Sequence record: OR424388.1
DNA length: 64,000 nucleotides
DNA from: Escherichia phage HEMP5
Direction: 5' to 3' (one strand)
The notes beneath the pieces were generated by a model. It was not told the origin of the DNA and ran no database searches. It saw nothing but the letters and a program-made list of their open reading frames with translations. Below, one piece after another: positions 1,176-8,733 of the stretch (its first letter is position 1; each line of letters starts with the position of its first letter). The position numbers and the translations under genes were made by a program.

Positions 1176-1209
1176 TATTTTTCCTTTCAATTCATGGGTT
1201 AGTAGATTA

Positions 1210-1234
1210 ATTATACAATAAATATATAAAGCAA
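1210..1234 (-). promoter_or_regulatory. MotA-dependent middle promoter for gene 56 (MotA box TGCTTTA, 12-nt spacer, -10 TATAAT)
   Basis: Minus strand reads ..TTGCTTTATATATTTATTGTATAAT.. about 35 nt upstream of the gene 56 ATG. Confidence 0.5.
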
Positions 1235-1246
1235 TAAGGAGGACAT

Positions 1247-1447
1247 ATGGTACAAAAATTAATGGCACTTGTTAATGCCATCAAAGGTAATAAAAAGCGT
1301 ATAGCTTTTACTATTTCTGCTATGGTAGGAATTTTACTCTGGAACTTTATTTTATCACCTGTTGCAATTGCACATGGTATTAATATTCCAGTAGTTACTC
1401 TTGATACATTCGTAGATTTAGCATTCGCTTTAGTTGGGTTAATTTAA
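1247..1447 (+). CDS. possible small membrane protein on the opposite strand (66 aa)
   Basis: Plus-strand ORF with strong AAGGAGG RBS 4 nt before ATG; two hydrophobic segments; lies in the 56-61 intergenic region, convergent with primase; no clear promoter. Confidence 0.3.
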   Translation: MVQKLMALVNAIKGNKKRIAFTISAMVGILLWNFILSPVAIAHGINIPVVTLDTFVDLAFALVGLI

Positions 1448-2472
1448 ATCTTAGCATATTTAGATAACCGCATTTTAGCCATCAACCCCTGAGCAATATT
1501 ATTTTTCATATATTCCATAATTTGTTCAGTGGTTGCACCTTCCTTTCTAATCATATCATTAACATCTTTTGATTTCCAGGGAGATTTATCCCAAAACATA
1601 ACCCTTTCTCCTGCATCAACTAATTTAGTCATTCGCTTAATAGTGTCAGGATGACGAGGTTCATTATCTAAAACCCACACACGTCTATCTTTAAATGGAA
1701 CAACTTCTAGGTCTAATTGACCACCTGTAATAGCTATACCATTTTCAATAAAAAGCGAATCTATAGGTCCTTCTAGAACATATACATCACCATCTTTGAC
1801 TCGTTCGACTCCATAGATTTTTGTTGCCTCAGGATAAGCTTTGATGGTGATATATTTTTGAGGAGCATCTTTCTTTAATGCACGTCCTTGAAAAGACTCA
1901 GCTTTTCCGTTAGCATTATAAATTGGAATAACAAGACGAGGCTCAGGTGTTTCCTTTTTATATGTTCCTGGAGCTATACTATTAACTAATTTAGGCCATT
2001 CAGTTGTAAACCAAAGATATTTCCATTTATCCTTTGGAATACAACGAGCTTTTACATATTTTATAATTGGATGGTCTTCCGCCAATTTATCTAATCTGAT
2101 GCATGACGGAAGAGATTTAATTATTTTCTTCTCAGGTTGTTTAGGAAGTTCTTTAGGTTTTTCTACTGGACGACTTTTACCTTTTTCTTTTCTTATTTCA
2201 AAGATATACTCACGATATAAATCAGGTTCAAACTCCTTTAAATATATTCCGATTGGTGCATGATAGTTACAGTTATAACAATGAATATTTCCTTCATTAT
2301 TATCGCCATAATACCATCCACGGGCTTTATTTTGATCGGTTTTTGAATCTCCACAAACGGGACATCTAAACCGTAATTTAAAAGTTGAACTATTATTTAC
2401 TTGTGCGAATTTAGGTAAATGAGCCAATGCACGGTATGCAAACTCATTATCAATCCAAGGTATTGATGACAT
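1444..2472 (-). CDS. 61: DNA primase gp61
   Basis: 342 aa; zinc-ribbon CPVCGDSK...CYNC plus TOPRIM-type core; same length as T4 gp61. Confidence 0.95.
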   Translation of the reverse strand: MSSIPWIDNEFAYRALAHLPKFAQVNNSSTFKLRFRCPVCGDSKTDQNKARGWYYGDNNEGNIHCYNCNYHAPIGIYLKEFEPDLYREYIFEIRKEKGKSRPVEKPKELPKQPEKKIIKSLPSCIRLDKLAEDHPIIKYVKARCIPKDKWKYLWFTTEWPKLVNSIAPGTYKKETPEPRLVIPIYNANGKAESFQGRALKKDAPQKYITIKAYPEATKIYGVERVKDGDVYVLEGPIDSLFIENGIAITGGQLDLEVVPFKDRRVWVLDNEPRHPDTIKRMTKLVDAGERVMFWDKSPWKSKDVNDMIRKEGATTEQIMEYMKNNIAQGLMAKMRLSKYAKI

Positions 2473-2474
2473 TT

Positions 2475-2639
2475 TTACTCTTCTTTTTCTTTAGATTCCT
2501 CTTTTTTCTTTTTAGGAATCTGTTCAGGACCTTTATTTACTACAGCACCTGACGTTGTTCCAGTGGAGATATTTTCAGGATTACCACCTGAATCTCCAGC
2601 TACCATATCTTCTTTAATAAATTCTTTATATGTTTTCAT
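2475..2639 (-). CDS. small protein with internal-protein-type capsid targeting sequence (54 aa; T4 61.1 position)
   Basis: MKTYKEFIKEDMVAGDSGGNPENISTGTTSGAVVNKGPEQIPKKKKEESKEKEE; N-terminus matches the MKT(Y/F)xEFIxE CTS of IPI/IPII/IPIII; stop 5 nt before the primase start. Confidence 0.5.
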   Translation of the reverse strand: MKTYKEFIKEDMVAGDSGGNPENISTGTTSGAVVNKGPEQIPKKKKEESKEKEE

Positions 2640-2640
2640 A

Positions 2641-3267
2641 TTAACCTCTATTCATAAAAGCATTAAAAATTTGGTCATCAATAGAAACATCTACTTTAGA
2701 CTGTTTTTCTGATGGTAATTCATATCCACATATTACAATTTTGTGATCAATATCAAAATACACAGAAGCAATATGATTAATGATGTTTTCAGTAAAGTCT
2801 AAATCAACATCAATATCTTTTTGACCACAGCCCAAAGGATAAATAATGCGAGTAATTCGATTATCTTTAACAAAGATTCCACCGACATACTCTGTGCTGC
2901 GTTTAAAGTCTACACGCCAACGAAATGAAAAATATTCAGGCTCTTTATGAGCTCTGCTCATAGGACACAACGAGTAACTAGAATAAGAGATGTCAAATCC
3001 TACGCCTTCAATATGAGCCAAAGTATCATGATTAAACCAATTATAATCGTACGCCAAATCCATTAGATTATAATATGTAAAAGGCACCGGATTAACGTCA
3101 TTAATCACAAGCATGTAATTAGCAACTGCTATAATTTCATTGTTTTTAACGAATACAAACCGTGATTGATGCGAATGACCTGGACCCGCGTTTTCACGAT
3201 TAATGATATAACACTGGGCACCTTTATATTTGTATGTATCTTTGCACTTGTGCATTTGATAGAGCAT
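2641..3267 (-). CDS. hypothetical protein at the T4 61.2 position (possible AdfA-like anti-DarT factor by synteny)
   Basis: 208 aa; TAATG overlap with sp; assignment to the AdfA family rests on position and recall only, no motif confirmed. Confidence 0.7.
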   Translation of the reverse strand: MLYQMHKCKDTYKYKGAQCYIINRENAGPGHSHQSRFVFVKNNEIIAVANYMLVINDVNPVPFTYYNLMDLAYDYNWFNHDTLAHIEGVGFDISYSSYSLCPMSRAHKEPEYFSFRWRVDFKRSTEYVGGIFVKDNRITRIIYPLGCGQKDIDVDLDFTENIINHIASVYFDIDHKIVICGYELPSEKQSKVDVSIDDQIFNAFMNRG

Positions 3268-3560
3268 TATTCACCTACCACTTCAGCGATGATATTTTTA
3301 TTATTAAAGTTTTTATCGCAATACAGAACATAATTATACTGCATTACACCACCAGACTTAAGCTGTTTTTGCACTTCAGCTTTCATTTCGGGGCGATCGC
3401 GCTCAACGATATTCATAATATCTGCTTCAATTTGAGTTTCAACCTCAGTCTGATCCGCAGTCATAGACCATTCGCACAAATCTTTATCATAGCCTGCCAT
3501 GGCAGGTTGAGCAGCGCAAGAAGCTAAAGCAAAAATTGCAGCAAAGATAAATTTTTTCAT
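3267..3560 (-). CDS. sp: Spackle periplasmic protein (inhibitor of gp5 tail lysozyme; superinfection exclusion)
   Basis: 97 aa; signal peptide with lipobox-like LASC; GAGG RBS; matches recalled T4 Sp length and sequence. Confidence 0.85.
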   Translation of the reverse strand: MKKFIFAAIFALASCAAQPAMAGYDKDLCEWSMTADQTEVETQIEADIMNIVERDRPEMKAEVQKQLKSGGVMQYNYVLYCDKNFNNKNIIAEVVGE

Positions 3561-3620
3561 GATAATCTCCTCGGTAGTTTATGTTTATATAATATCTCAA
3601 TTTCCAACAAAAGTAAATAG

Positions 3621-3878
3621 TTATTTTAAAACTTCTGCGTAATCACATGTTACAAACTGTTTCTCTAGCTTGACGATTTTACGAAAGTATCTTTTGCATT
3701 GGCGAATCTGCCTCTTCGTAGGACGTACAGCAAACTTAATAAATTCCACTCGACCAAATGGAGGACTTTCTTCTGCTGGAATATCTAACACCAATTCCCA
3801 CGTATCTGCAACAAGTGCTTTGAATTGCGTATTTTTCCTGACATTATACGGAGTAGGTTTAAATAAAACAATATGCAT
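3621..3878 (-). CDS. hypothetical protein (T4 61.4 position)
   Basis: 85 aa; ATG with GAGGA RBS. Confidence 0.7.
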   Translation of the reverse strand: MHIVLFKPTPYNVRKNTQFKALVADTWELVLDIPAEESPPFGRVEFIKFAVRPTKRQIRQCKRYFRKIVKLEKQFVTCDYAEVLK

Positions 3879-3879
3879 A

Positions 3880-4062
3880 TTATCCTCGGCAATCTACTTC
3901 ACATACTTTCTTGTCATCAATGAAAGCTTTAACTAATGCTTTATTAACTTCAGCATACTGAGTAGTAACCCATTGAACATCATCTTTCATCATTGTGGTT
4001 TCTTTAGTAAACATGCTTTCATTCTTAAACCACCCCATAAAAACTACCTTTACCAATTCCAT
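3880..4062 (-). CDS. dmd: Dmd antitoxin (inhibitor of host RnlA/LsoA toxins; T4 61.5)
   Basis: 60 aa MELVKVVFMGWFKNESMFTKE...; GGAG RBS; matches recalled T4 Dmd. Confidence 0.85.
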   Translation of the reverse strand: MELVKVVFMGWFKNESMFTKETTMMKDDVQWVTTQYAEVNKALVKAFIDDKKVCEVDCRG

Positions 4063-4120
4063 AACAATCTCCTCATTTAACCAACAAGACTACTATACCA
4101 TAGTCTTGTCAGCTTGTAAA

Positions 4121-5548
4121 CTAAAATTTTAATTCATTCGCCAAAGCATCTAACTGAGCTCGAGTGGATTCATTTCTTTGATAGCGATTCTGTTCAGCCT
4201 GAATCTGTTGTGAACCTGCTACTTCACTCACTTCGGTTGGAGTAGAATCTTGTTCAATTTCTACCCATTTTTGATTTCCTTTTTGAACACCCATCAAAAA
4301 CTTATTCCACTTATTCTTATCACCATATCGTGATTTGATTTGCTTAATAAGTTGTTGTTCAGCAGCTGCCAACTCCTCGGTTTCAATGACCGCAAGCATA
4401 AAATCAGCTGTCGCTGGAAGACCAGCAGATTCTGCGATATCACTCATGTTAACATCGGAAGAGTCCCAAGCTTGTTTACCGACCTGTGCTGCAGTCCAAA
4501 GAACAGTTTCGGTTTCAACAGCAAGAGCACGCAATTCCTCTGCAATAGCTTTAACAGTTGTGTAACTATTTTCTGAATAAACTCTAATGCGGCAAGATTT
4601 ACAAATACCTAGATAGTCGACAATAATGATTGTTGGAACAAAATTCTTCTTGAGCTTCAATTCATTCAAGAGAGACCTGAATGTGTTAGCATCTGCCCCA
4701 CCAGTGGGATACTGTTTAACGATTAAACGACCAAGAGTAGATTTCTCACGCCATTTTTCCATTTTTCCTTTATACTCAGCGTAAGAAATATGCCCATCAT
4801 CAATGTCATCAAGAGAAACATCAAGCATATTAGCATCAATACGCTTAGCACAGACTTCTTCTGCCATTTCCATGGAAATGTAAAGAACATTATGTCCGAG
4901 CTGCAAATAATCTGCTGCCAATGAACAAAGTCCTAATGATTTACCAACGTTAACGCCAGCCATTAAAACGTTCAGTGTCCCAGTCTCAGCTCCGCCTTTA
5001 GTAATTTTGTTTAGAATTCTGAGTTTAAATGGAACCTTACGAGCTTTATTCATATAAGATAGCCAACGTGCTTCGTAGTCATCCATCCAATCATGACCAA
5101 CGTAACTATCAAATGAAATTGATAATGCTTGGCGCATGATGTCAGGAATAGCACCAACGTCCGGCATTTTCTTATTTCGTTTTTCCGGAGGAAGCTCAGC
5201 ATTAGTTTGAATTTCGATTATTTTAGACGTAGCATTAAACATCGCCCTTTGCTGAACATATTTTTCTGTTTCTTTTACTAACCAGCTGTGGTCTTCCGGA
5301 GAATCAGCTAGTTTTGAAATAAGTGTTTTTACACCAGAATATTCTGTTTCAGTAAATGAACTATTTTCTAATGCAACATTTAACGCATTAATAGATGGAA
5401 CGCTATGGTACTCGTTAACATGAGATTTAATTAATTTGAACGTATTTTTAGCTGGACCACTTTCAAAATATTCTGAATCCATATATGGCCAAACTTTTGA
5501 AAAATAAGCTTGATCAAATATGAGATGAGAAAGAATAATTTCTACCAC
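4121..5548 (-). CDS. 41: replicative DNA helicase gp41 (DnaB-like)
   Basis: 475 aa; Walker A GVNVGKS; initiates at GTG 5 nt after AAGGAG; start overlaps the gene 40 stop. Confidence 0.95.
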   Translation of the reverse strand: MVEIILSHLIFDQAYFSKVWPYMDSEYFESGPAKNTFKLIKSHVNEYHSVPSINALNVALENSSFTETEYSGVKTLISKLADSPEDHSWLVKETEKYVQQRAMFNATSKIIEIQTNAELPPEKRNKKMPDVGAIPDIMRQALSISFDSYVGHDWMDDYEARWLSYMNKARKVPFKLRILNKITKGGAETGTLNVLMAGVNVGKSLGLCSLAADYLQLGHNVLYISMEMAEEVCAKRIDANMLDVSLDDIDDGHISYAEYKGKMEKWREKSTLGRLIVKQYPTGGADANTFRSLLNELKLKKNFVPTIIIVDYLGICKSCRIRVYSENSYTTVKAIAEELRALAVETETVLWTAAQVGKQAWDSSDVNMSDIAESAGLPATADFMLAVIETEELAAAEQQLIKQIKSRYGDKNKWNKFLMGVQKGNQKWVEIEQDSTPTEVSEVAGSQQIQAEQNRYQRNESTRAQLDALANELKF

Positions 5549-5557
5549 ACTTACTCC

Positions 5558-5902
5558 TTAAAAGAATTTAAACTTTTTCTTTGACCTTTTATTAAATGCA
5601 TCTTGTAGTTGCATTGTAATACATTTTTCTACATGAGGAGCTAACTCAGCTTTTCTTTTTTGGTCAAGAACAGCAAAGTCCATTACGACTTTTCCATCAA
5701 CCCAATCTAATTTTGTCACATACACAATATGTGTAGAACCATCTTCTAGTTTAATGACAATCTCCTGGATAACATTTTCCATGGCAGATTTAATTATTTT
5801 AAGAGATTCATTAAAAAGACGTTCTTTTCTTTCTTCTTCCCCCTCCGAAGAGGGGGATTCATCGATAATTTCTAGATCTAAATCTAAATCATCTTTATTC
5901 AT
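5558..5902 (-). CDS. 40: gp40 head vertex assembly protein
   Basis: 114 aa from ATG overlapping the uvsX 3' end; the six-frame ORF begins at an upstream GTG. Confidence 0.8.
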   Translation of the reverse strand: MNKDDLDLDLEIIDESPSSEGEEERKERLFNESLKIIKSAMENVIQEIVIKLEDGSTHIVYVTKLDWVDGKVVMDFAVLDQKRKAELAPHVEKCITMQLQDAFNKRSKKKFKFF

Positions 5903-7153: not shown

Positions 7154-7996
7154 TTAATCAACTGCTATTGGATGAATAGCATTAAACTTATGAAATGCTT
7201 CTGATTTTTCTTTACGTGAAACGCACATGCGAAGAACCTTTAATGGCTCGTCTTCTTCACCCAACGATTTTCGTTTTTCAATATTAGAAGTTTTCCAACG
7301 AGCTTGCTCTGGAAACTCTCTATTGATTTGCTCAAGCGCTCTATTATGTTTAGAATTACTACGAATTGAACTGCACCCGCCAGGAGCTTGTGCTTTTCCA
7401 GATACAACCAGATATTTGAACAAGGCCAAATGCGGATAACCTTGATTAATTAAATTGAGAAATGCATACATATCTTCGCACAAATCAATTTTTCCATACC
7501 CAATTTGTTCTGTCGTAAGTTTTCCGAGGTCATACCATGTATTCGTGAATCCATATGAGTTTTCACGATAATTACCCCAAGATGAAGTAATTTTAAAAAT
7601 TGGTAGGCGAGCATGACCGTGATAATACCCGCAATCCATGGCATCTTCGACGTATTGAATCAATTCATAGAACTGTTCATGAGTCAATTGATTGACTTTA
7701 TCTACACAACGACGGTCATCTCTTTTTCGCATTGAACTCATACGAATAGTAGTATCATCGTCAATCATCCAGATTCGTTGACCTGCATACATATCAGTAA
7801 TTGCTTTACGAGTACCGGCAATTCCGTTTACATCATCAGGAATAGTTACAATTTTAGCTCTAGACCCATAGGCATCATAATAAGCTTTTTCTTCATGTTC
7901 ACGCACTACAATATGGGGTTCATAATCAGTCGGAAACATATCAAGGGCAGAAACTGCCCCGACACGCTGATAACTTGGAATTACGAATTGAATCAT
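7154..7996 (-). CDS. glycosyltransferase with DxD motif, T2/T6 beta-alpha-gt type rather than T4 beta-gt
   Basis: 280 aa from ATG overlapping the gene 42 stop (ATGA); IWMIDDDTTI DxD motif; no similarity to recalled T4 beta-gt although it sits at the beta-gt locus. Confidence 0.75.
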   Translation of the reverse strand: MIQFVIPSYQRVGAVSALDMFPTDYEPHIVVREHEEKAYYDAYGSRAKIVTIPDDVNGIAGTRKAITDMYAGQRIWMIDDDTTIRMSSMRKRDDRRCVDKVNQLTHEQFYELIQYVEDAMDCGYYHGHARLPIFKITSSWGNYRENSYGFTNTWYDLGKLTTEQIGYGKIDLCEDMYAFLNLINQGYPHLALFKYLVVSGKAQAPGGCSSIRSNSKHNRALEQINREFPEQARWKTSNIEKRKSLGEEDEPLKVLRMCVSRKEKSEAFHKFNAIHPIAVD

Positions 7997-8733
7997 TTCC
8001 ACTCACCTTTATAGTCTTTTTTCACAATATGAGTTTCGCCAGTATTCCACCAATGATCAACCAAGTAAAAATGACGAGAATATACATGAAGACTTCCGAC
8101 ATTCCATATAATAGAACCTGCTTTATACTGACGAGTTGAATCGCCGGCATTCAAATCAGATACTAATTTATCTAATACGTATTTTTGCCATGCATAATCA
8201 TTGCGGAATCCGAAGACCACGTCATTTGAGCGCATGCTTACTACTGCATTTACTTTCTTATCACGAATCAGGTACTGTACTGTATTAGTACACATGAAAT
8301 CTGACATACCATCTTTATTGTAGTCAAATTGCATGGATGGACGAGTATAAATCATGATACCACGCCGAGAATCAGGATTTTGACCAAGTTCAGCTAAACA
8401 CATATCATACTGGGCATAGTTATCTTCTGACCAAATAGCCCAACCATAATTCGAGTTAATTTCGCCTTTAGAAGATGCTACCTGCTGCCAAATCTTTGGT
8501 GTTTCACCTGGAATATCTTTAACAAACAAGCTCTTAGATTTATACCATTCAAGTTCGCGCTGAATGTATTCATCATTAAGAGCGCCAAAAATAAACGGTT
8601 CATCTGCTACAAATGATGCGCCAATAATTTCAATAGTTTTAACACCGGTTTTATCAACTACGAAATCTTTTTCTTTTAATGCAAGCCCCAAATGAAGACG
8701 GATTTCTTCAACTGTCATAGAGTCACTAATCAT
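7993..8733 (-). CDS. 42: dCMP hydroxymethylase gp42
   Basis: 246 aa; thymidylate-synthase-like fold; matches recalled T4 gp42. Confidence 0.95.
   Translation of the reverse strand: MISDSMTVEEIRLHLGLALKEKDFVVDKTGVKTIEIIGASFVADEPFIFGALNDEYIQRELEWYKSKSLFVKDIPGETPKIWQQVASSKGEINSNYGWAIWSEDNYAQYDMCLAELGQNPDSRRGIMIYTRPSMQFDYNKDGMSDFMCTNTVQYLIRDKKVNAVVSMRSNDVVFGFRNDYAWQKYVLDKLVSDLNAGDSTRQYKAGSIIWNVGSLHVYSRHFYLVDHWWNTGETHIVKKDYKGEWK

Follow-up and report, generated by a model that had tools for sequence, protein, structure and literature searches.

The locus between the spackle gene and gene 61.1 of Escherichia phage HEMP5 raises two questions: whether its 208-codon open reading frame (ORF) encodes the anti-DarT factor AdfA, and which toxin the product would act on. 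The window referred to below is the whole 64,000-nucleotide stretch of DNA that was analyzed (sequence record OR424388.1).

Identity and setting of the gene

A previous reading of the DNA from its letters alone (the sequence-only reading) had placed a 208-residue ORF at the 61.2 position and had called it AdfA-like by synteny only. The ORF was recovered at exactly the same coordinates, on the minus strand, which had been left out (Table 1), and the name was found to be correct on three grounds: full-length family membership, identity to the known proteins, and location in the slot between sp and 61.1. The product matched the Pfam family PF23813 (AdfA, Anti-DarT factor A) with residues 1-208 aligned to the whole profile (positions 1-211 of 211; E 1.9e-134; 446.1 bits for a gathering score of 27), and it matched PHROG 3781 (unknown function) over its full length. 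The alignment proposed as a check, to T4 61.2 and RB69 AdfA, was performed directly over the full length and gave 96% identity to T4 gp61.2 (NP_049650), which likewise has 208 residues, and 70% identity to RB69 gp61.2 (NP_861724), which is annotated with 212 residues. T4 61.2 is referred to as adfA (PMC9391042), and the strain "ΔadfA (61.2Δ65-196)" of T4 appears in PMC11257639. The window gene is adfA. It encodes an anti-DarT1 factor that has been described before, stands at the canonical position, has the T4-type His allele, and is not novel.

Among 50,697 phage records searched with tblastn, homologues were found in 486, every one with at least 80% query coverage. All 486 were T-even-like phages of Escherichia, Shigella, Yersinia, Salmonella, and Citrobacter, and the gene was labelled "hypothetical protein" in nearly all of them. 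A protein 100% identical to that of the window was encoded by Yersinia phage PYps32T and Escherichia phage D5505.

The gene order 56/61/61.1/61.2/sp/61.4/dmd/41/40/uvsX was that of annotated T4 (NC_000866), with soc and gene 56 at the low-coordinate end of the same minus-strand series and gene 40, uvsX, and further genes beyond gene 41. The position of adfA between sp and 61.1 within the primase-helicase block was also as in annotated RB69. Over its first 8 kb, the window showed 97-98% DNA identity to many Tequatrovirus genomes, and there is nothing unusual in a T4-like genome carrying adfA in its customary slot. The GC content of the ORF was 33%, compared with 35% over the whole window. The TAA stop codon of sp and the ATG of adfA share one base (TAATG), an overlap that suggests translational coupling of adfA to sp, and 61.1 starts 1 nt past the adfA stop codon.

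Table 1. Features of the adfA locus and of the related 118-residue gene (window coordinates, except in the last row, where each position is preceded by its locus).
Feature	Position	Strand	Remarks
gp61 primase	1444..2472	-	minus-strand neighbor below 61.1
61.1	2475..2639	-	adjoins adfA downstream; PHROG 1823; position and length as T4 61.1
46-nt junction ATTGATGACCAAATTTTTAATGCTTTTATGAATAGAGGTTAATATG	2637..2682	-	encodes the adfA C-terminal tail IDDQIFNAFMNRG (last 13 codons), the stop, and the 61.1 start
adfA (gene 61.2) CDS	2641..3267	-	ATG to TAA; 208 aa, 24.3 kDa, pI 5.9
codon CAT (His165)	2773..2775	-	column of RB69 AdfA residue 164, from alignments
ribosome-binding region GGTAGGTGAATA	3268..3279	-	good Shine-Dalgarno, directly 5' of the adfA ATG
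sp (spackle)	3267..3560	-	adjoins adfA upstream; Pfam PF25676 T4_Spackle, E 5.5e-45
sigma-70-type promoter-like site TTTACT-17-TATTAT	3589..3617	-	61.4-sp gap; 9/12 matches; candidate promoter for sp-adfA-61.1-61
61.4 = tifA (ToxN inhibitor)	3621..3878	-	Pfam DUF7279 and PHROG 2375; T4 61.4 position; PMC9391042
dmd (RnlA/LsoA toxin inhibitor)	3880..4062	-	Pfam PF17587 Dmd, E 1.8e-44
T4 early-promoter-like site GTTTACA...TGGTATAGT	4092..4121	-	precedes dmd; transcription from it may read through into adfA
gp41 helicase	4121..5548	-	beyond dmd
118-aa PHROG-4122 gene	L003:2396-2752 (ime09), L006:1896-2252 (T2), L004:3260-3616 (teqhad), L005:2135-2491 (GiZh)		slot corresponds to window 2640

The region comprising dmd (anti-RnlA), tifA (61.4, anti-ToxN), and adfA has been named the anti-TA island (PMC9391042), and with tifA and dmd both intact beside adfA, the window carries the complete published island. 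Other differences in gene content were observed around it. Phage ime09 has two extra small genes between 61.4 and sp (one goF-like and one of 60 residues), and the window has neither. The dam and segF genes, present in T4 between 56 and 61, were missing and were replaced by a plus-strand ORF of 66 residues (1247..1447, also 1268..1444), the position and length of which are those of RB69ORF029w (annotated in ime09 and RB69). The window also lacks segA, which follows uvsX in T4. Past uvsX, a 282-residue ORF (7154..8002, minus strand) occupies the position at which the closest phages have an annotated beta-glucosyl-HMC-alpha-glucosyltransferase of the T2/T6 type and not the T4 b-gt, and this position suggests T2/T6-like DNA glucosylation.

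The assignment of adfA to one operon with dmd and sp, made in the sequence-only reading, stood in part. The genes all point the same way with almost no space between them, and no terminator-like site was found on the minus strand from 4121 to 1284; the sole such site on the minus strand of 1200..5800 was located at 1284..1259, downstream of gene 61. However, two promoter-like sites split the region (Table 1). The number of promoter-like sites in the region was not above the shuffled expectation, and both sites rest on their position and on the T4 literature, in which dmd and 61.4 (tifA) form a locus of two genes under an early T4 promoter and a further promoter lies downstream of tifA (PMC9391042). 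Most likely, sp-adfA-61.1-61 would be transcribed as a unit from a promoter of its own, supplemented by read-through from the dmd promoter. No T4 late TATAAATA motif was found on the minus strand of 1200-5800, and the sole MotA box with a -10 element (1233..1210) was outside the adfA locus. An early-type, sigma-70 promoter-like context fits an action of AdfA before replication.

Allele type and expected action

According to PMC11825919, AdfA was found via RB69 mutants that escaped DarTG1 hosts, in which the substitution R164H converts the RB69 protein from an inactive form to a neutralizer of DarT1. The escape mutations, which the sequence-only reading had mapped to T4 61.2, were therefore those of the RB69 homologue. 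In a bacterial two-hybrid assay with catalytically dead DarT1, the association was strong for AdfA-RB69(R164H), weak for AdfA-T4, and absent for wild-type AdfA-RB69 (PMC11825919), and AdfA-T4 rescued RB69 only under strong induction (PMC11825919). AdfA is described as having neither an enzymatic domain nor a structural homologue and is proposed to bind the toxin like a type II antitoxin (PMC11825919, PMC11257639). T4 AdfA naturally carries His at the position of RB69 residue 164, yet deletion of adfA does not sensitize T4 (PMC11825919, PMC11257639).

Residue 164 of RB69 is the R in TENNINRIASVYFD of the annotated 212-residue protein, and it was aligned with H165 of the window protein in TENIINHIASVYFD. 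This column is occupied by Arg in wild-type RB69 and by His in the escape mutant, T4, and the window; judged from these alignments, the window allele is of the T4 type. The sequence-only reading had considered no motif nameable, and the His/Arg position is the functional determinant it had missed. Asn was observed as a third natural allele in this column, in AdfA of phage GiZh (L005:1501-2133) and its cluster P0014 of 94 member sequences, beside the Arg cluster P0015 of 258 members; the portion of the AdfA literature covered makes no mention of an Asn allele.

Compared with T4, 21 codon differences in adfA were synonymous and nine were non-synonymous, the latter being (window residue first) I55T, P62L, Y66D, T82N, A84V, W117R, C147F, S190P, and D193N. 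At four of the nine sites (P62, Y66, T82, and A84), the window has the RB69/consensus state. Differences outside position 164 also alter the potency of AdfA (PMC11825919). By analogy with AdfA-T4, we infer that the window allele would bind the tested E. coli DarT1 only weakly.

T-even phages counter DarTG1 mainly through AdfN (gp30.3), a NADAR ADP-ribosylglycohydrolase, and T4 adfA is dispensable for DarTG1 resistance even in the absence of adfN (PMC11257639). T4 ΔadfA ΔadfN is still resistant to DarTG2, so that DarTG2 resistance is explained by neither factor (PMC11257639). Two proposals of the sequence-only reading need revision on these grounds. A plaque assay on DarTG2 hosts is not informative for AdfA, which concerns DarTG1; and a lack of effect on DarTG sensitivity, which had been offered as a refutation, would not refute the identity of the gene, as T4 ΔadfA itself has no DarTG1 phenotype.

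With high probability, the ORF is adfA, the T4 61.2 orthologue in a T2/T4-like Tequatrovirus, and encodes a DarT1-binding anti-DarTG1 protein whose His allele is expected to be weak and not the main factor. AdfA would be a small, non-enzymatic, early-expressed protein that binds the DNA ADP-ribosyltransferase DarT1 like a type II antitoxin. With DarT1 bound, phage DNA would not be ADP-ribosylated and replication would proceed. On the analogy with AdfA-T4, the window allele would be sufficient when over-expressed and would not serve as the main anti-DarTG1 factor of the phage, a role expected of the glycohydrolase AdfN, encoded outside the window. Gene identity, family membership, allele, and synteny were determined here; the binding of DarT1 and the part played by residue 164 are taken from the literature. 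Several points count against this explanation. The window protein differs from AdfA-T4 at nine residues, with potency being sensitive to differences outside position 164; the dispensability of T4 adfA implies that the physiological target may differ from the tested DarT1; and the case for direct binding of DarT1 comes from the bacterial two-hybrid assay rather than from a structure or work with purified proteins.

Alternative targets and roles, and the variable slot

The second of these points leads to a possible, if not probable, reading within the same family: T4-type AdfA, the window allele included, may be tuned to another DarT homologue or to another DNA or protein ADP-ribosyltransferase toxin, and its weak binding of DarT1 would be cross-reactivity. 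T4 ΔadfA shows no phenotype even in the ΔadfN background, and neutralization of another DarT homologue is what the authors propose (PMC11257639). The existence of three natural alleles (His, Asn, and Arg) at the specificity column points in the same direction, as does the non-synonymous share of changed codons relative to T4, 9/30 in adfA versus 1/39 in gene 41, which fits an arms-race interface. However, no alternative target is known, His is the allele that binds DarT1 in RB69, and AdfA-T4 does rescue when over-expressed (PMC11825919). This reading refines the explanation preferred here rather than excluding it.

Relatives of AdfA and its fold bear on a further reading. A word-indexed search retrieved 16 clusters (at 90% identity), each of them in PF23813 and at least 68% identical. 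When 1.84 billion representatives were searched exhaustively with a profile, the yield was one full-length cluster together with fragments or chimeras (P0017-P0021). One of the latter, the metagenomic P0020 (102 residues), joins an AdfA fragment (residues ~103-131) to unrelated sequence and is probably an assembly or gene-calling chimera, not a true relative. Neither search found AdfA relatives outside T-even-like phages. No enzymatic domain was detected, AdfA being the sole Pfam family at E<=0.1. The single sequence had no match in the PDB at E<=1, and the profile search against the PDB gave noise only (dCMP deaminase, E 0.25; EF-P, E 1.2).

An AF2 model built from a 16-sequence alignment was of moderate confidence (mean pLDDT 72, pTM 0.56), and its search with Foldseek against the PDB yielded no significant match (best E 0.15), a weak negative for a model of this quality. 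A BFVD fold search returned only AdfA itself and one viral protein of 118 residues. The PURA repeat, the top PDB match, has the beta4-alpha x2 topology in common with the AdfA model, but the match is statistically meaningless and was not accepted as evidence. An antitoxin of the NADAR/macrodomain (AdfN) type was not indicated by any second Pfam family, PDB sequence match, or significant fold match of the pLDDT 72 model. The possibility of a DNA mimic was discarded, since such proteins are strongly acidic and AdfA is only mildly so (pI 5.9), with its net charge of -5 concentrated in the C-terminal half (pI 4.7).

The model consists of two halves, the first with strands in residues 18-62 and a helix at 65-76 and the second with strands in residues 112-157 and a helix at 160-170, and H165 is predicted to lie within this second helix. 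Conservation within the family is highest in HIEGVGFDISYSSYSLCPMSRAH (residues ~85-107; window 2947..3015), which was modelled with the lowest confidence (pLDDT <50 at 89-94 and 105-108) and could be a binding loop that becomes ordered on the target. Both halves have in common the strand-strand-strand-strand-helix order and a motif FV(F/-)VK(N/D)N(E/R)I. When they were aligned with each other using hhalign (residues 6-54 versus 107-146), P was 4e-4 with a probability of ~30% over 40 columns (FVFVKNNEI versus GIFVKDNRI). Internal duplication is thus possible in AdfA, the evidence being suggestive and not convincing.

The slot between sp and 61.1 was observed in three states: adfA only (window and T4), a gene for a 118-residue protein only (T2 and ime09), and both in tandem (teqhad and GiZh). 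The 118-residue gene was found in 333 phage records, compared with 486 for adfA, and is absent from the window. The GiZh annotators had already labelled it "similar to gp61.2". The C-terminal half of AdfA gave a weak match (E 3.3e-7) to PHROG 4122, to which this gene belongs, and the 118-residue protein scores above the Pfam AdfA gathering threshold (34 bits versus 27; profile positions 114-211). Most of this signal came from a common 14-residue tail, SIDDQIFNAFMNRG, and with the tail removed the match fell to E 0.03; true homology of the two proteins is uncertain. The tail was also matched at 100% by tblastn in the more distant T4-like phages JS10 and dhabil. The 46-nt junction at the adfA 3' end (Table 1) was DNA-identical at the 3' end of the 118-residue gene in ime09 and teqhad, and by its sequence it is probably the recombination boundary of an exchangeable cassette. 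Where the two genes stand in tandem, the stretch forms a direct repeat, through which recombination could delete or swap cassette members.

In its widest form, this view would take AdfA as two beta4-alpha modules of ~100 residues with the 118-residue protein as a single-module relative, and the slot as a hypervariable anti-toxin cassette that is swapped via the 46-nt junction, each allele or half-size form having its own DarT-like toxin. We consider this unlikely as a whole. If it were true, potency or target could be other than those of AdfA-T4 in the window allele, which has four RB69-like reversions by comparison with T4.

A primary role outside defense, such as that of an accessory protein in replication or ssDNA binding, for which the association with DarT1 would be indirect or incidental, is highly improbable. 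The location of adfA within the primase-helicase block, the two beta-beta-beta-beta-alpha halves of the AF2 model, and the ssDNA/RNA-binding PURA repeat of the same topology as the top PDB match (non-significant; E 0.15, probability 0.05, TM 0.10-0.14) would agree with it, and an association seen in the two-hybrid assay in vivo is compatible with bridging. Against this, R164H alone switches on both DarT1 association and phage rescue (PMC11825919), the neighbors dmd and tifA are dedicated anti-toxin genes (PMC9391042), and the PURA fold match carries no statistical meaning. The absence of adfA from T2 and other viable phages means that it has no core replication role. Finally, a chance ORF or a decayed pseudogene without a product can be dismissed almost entirely, given the full-length conservation in 486 phage records, a length intact relative to T4, a good ribosome-binding site and start, and the excess of synonymous over non-synonymous changes, which places adfA under purifying selection.

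Annotation and relation to known systems

With the gene identified as adfA, the window gains a correct annotation for a published counter-defense gene that is mostly "hypothetical protein" in the deposited records, and the gene could be renamed adfA in phage records, with its allele (His, Asn, or Arg) stated. Carrying adfA, even in its His form, is no predictor of DarTG1 resistance, because that task falls to AdfN. Polymorphism at the slot (adfA, the 118-residue gene, or both) provides natural material for finding the true target of T4-type AdfA, a question already posed in the literature.

The closest known systems are AdfA of T4 and RB69, which belong with the window protein to PF23813 and occupy the same sp-61.1 slot; T4 AdfA also agrees in its length of 208 residues and in the specificity His. 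AdfN (T4 gp30.3) likewise counters DarTG1 in the same phages; however, it does so enzymatically, by taking ADP-ribose off DNA, and without binding DarT1, whereas AdfA is a toxin binder without an enzymatic domain. A tblastn search of the window with T4 gp30.3 did not find AdfN (best E 0.42), as expected from the T4 map, on which 30.3 is ~110 kb away. The 118-residue protein of PHROG 4122 (T2, ime09, and RB32ORF033c) has the same slot, the common 14-residue tail, and a weak likeness to the C-terminal half of AdfA, but it is half the size of AdfA and has no equivalent of the AdfA TENIINHIASVYF helix sequence. Dmd and TifA (T4 61.5 and 61.4) are, like AdfA, small early toxin-binding proteins of the anti-TA island (PMC9391042), whereas their targets (the RNases RnlA/LsoA and ToxN) are different and their sequences are unrelated. 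AdfB (gp145 of Vibrio phage ICP1) has less than 15% sequence similarity to AdfA (PMC11481870) and is predicted to resemble the DarG C-terminus, a resemblance not found for AdfA. It is likewise small and phage-encoded, with a presumed inhibitory action on DarT through direct contact, and its active and inactive natural alleles are one residue apart (PMC11481870).
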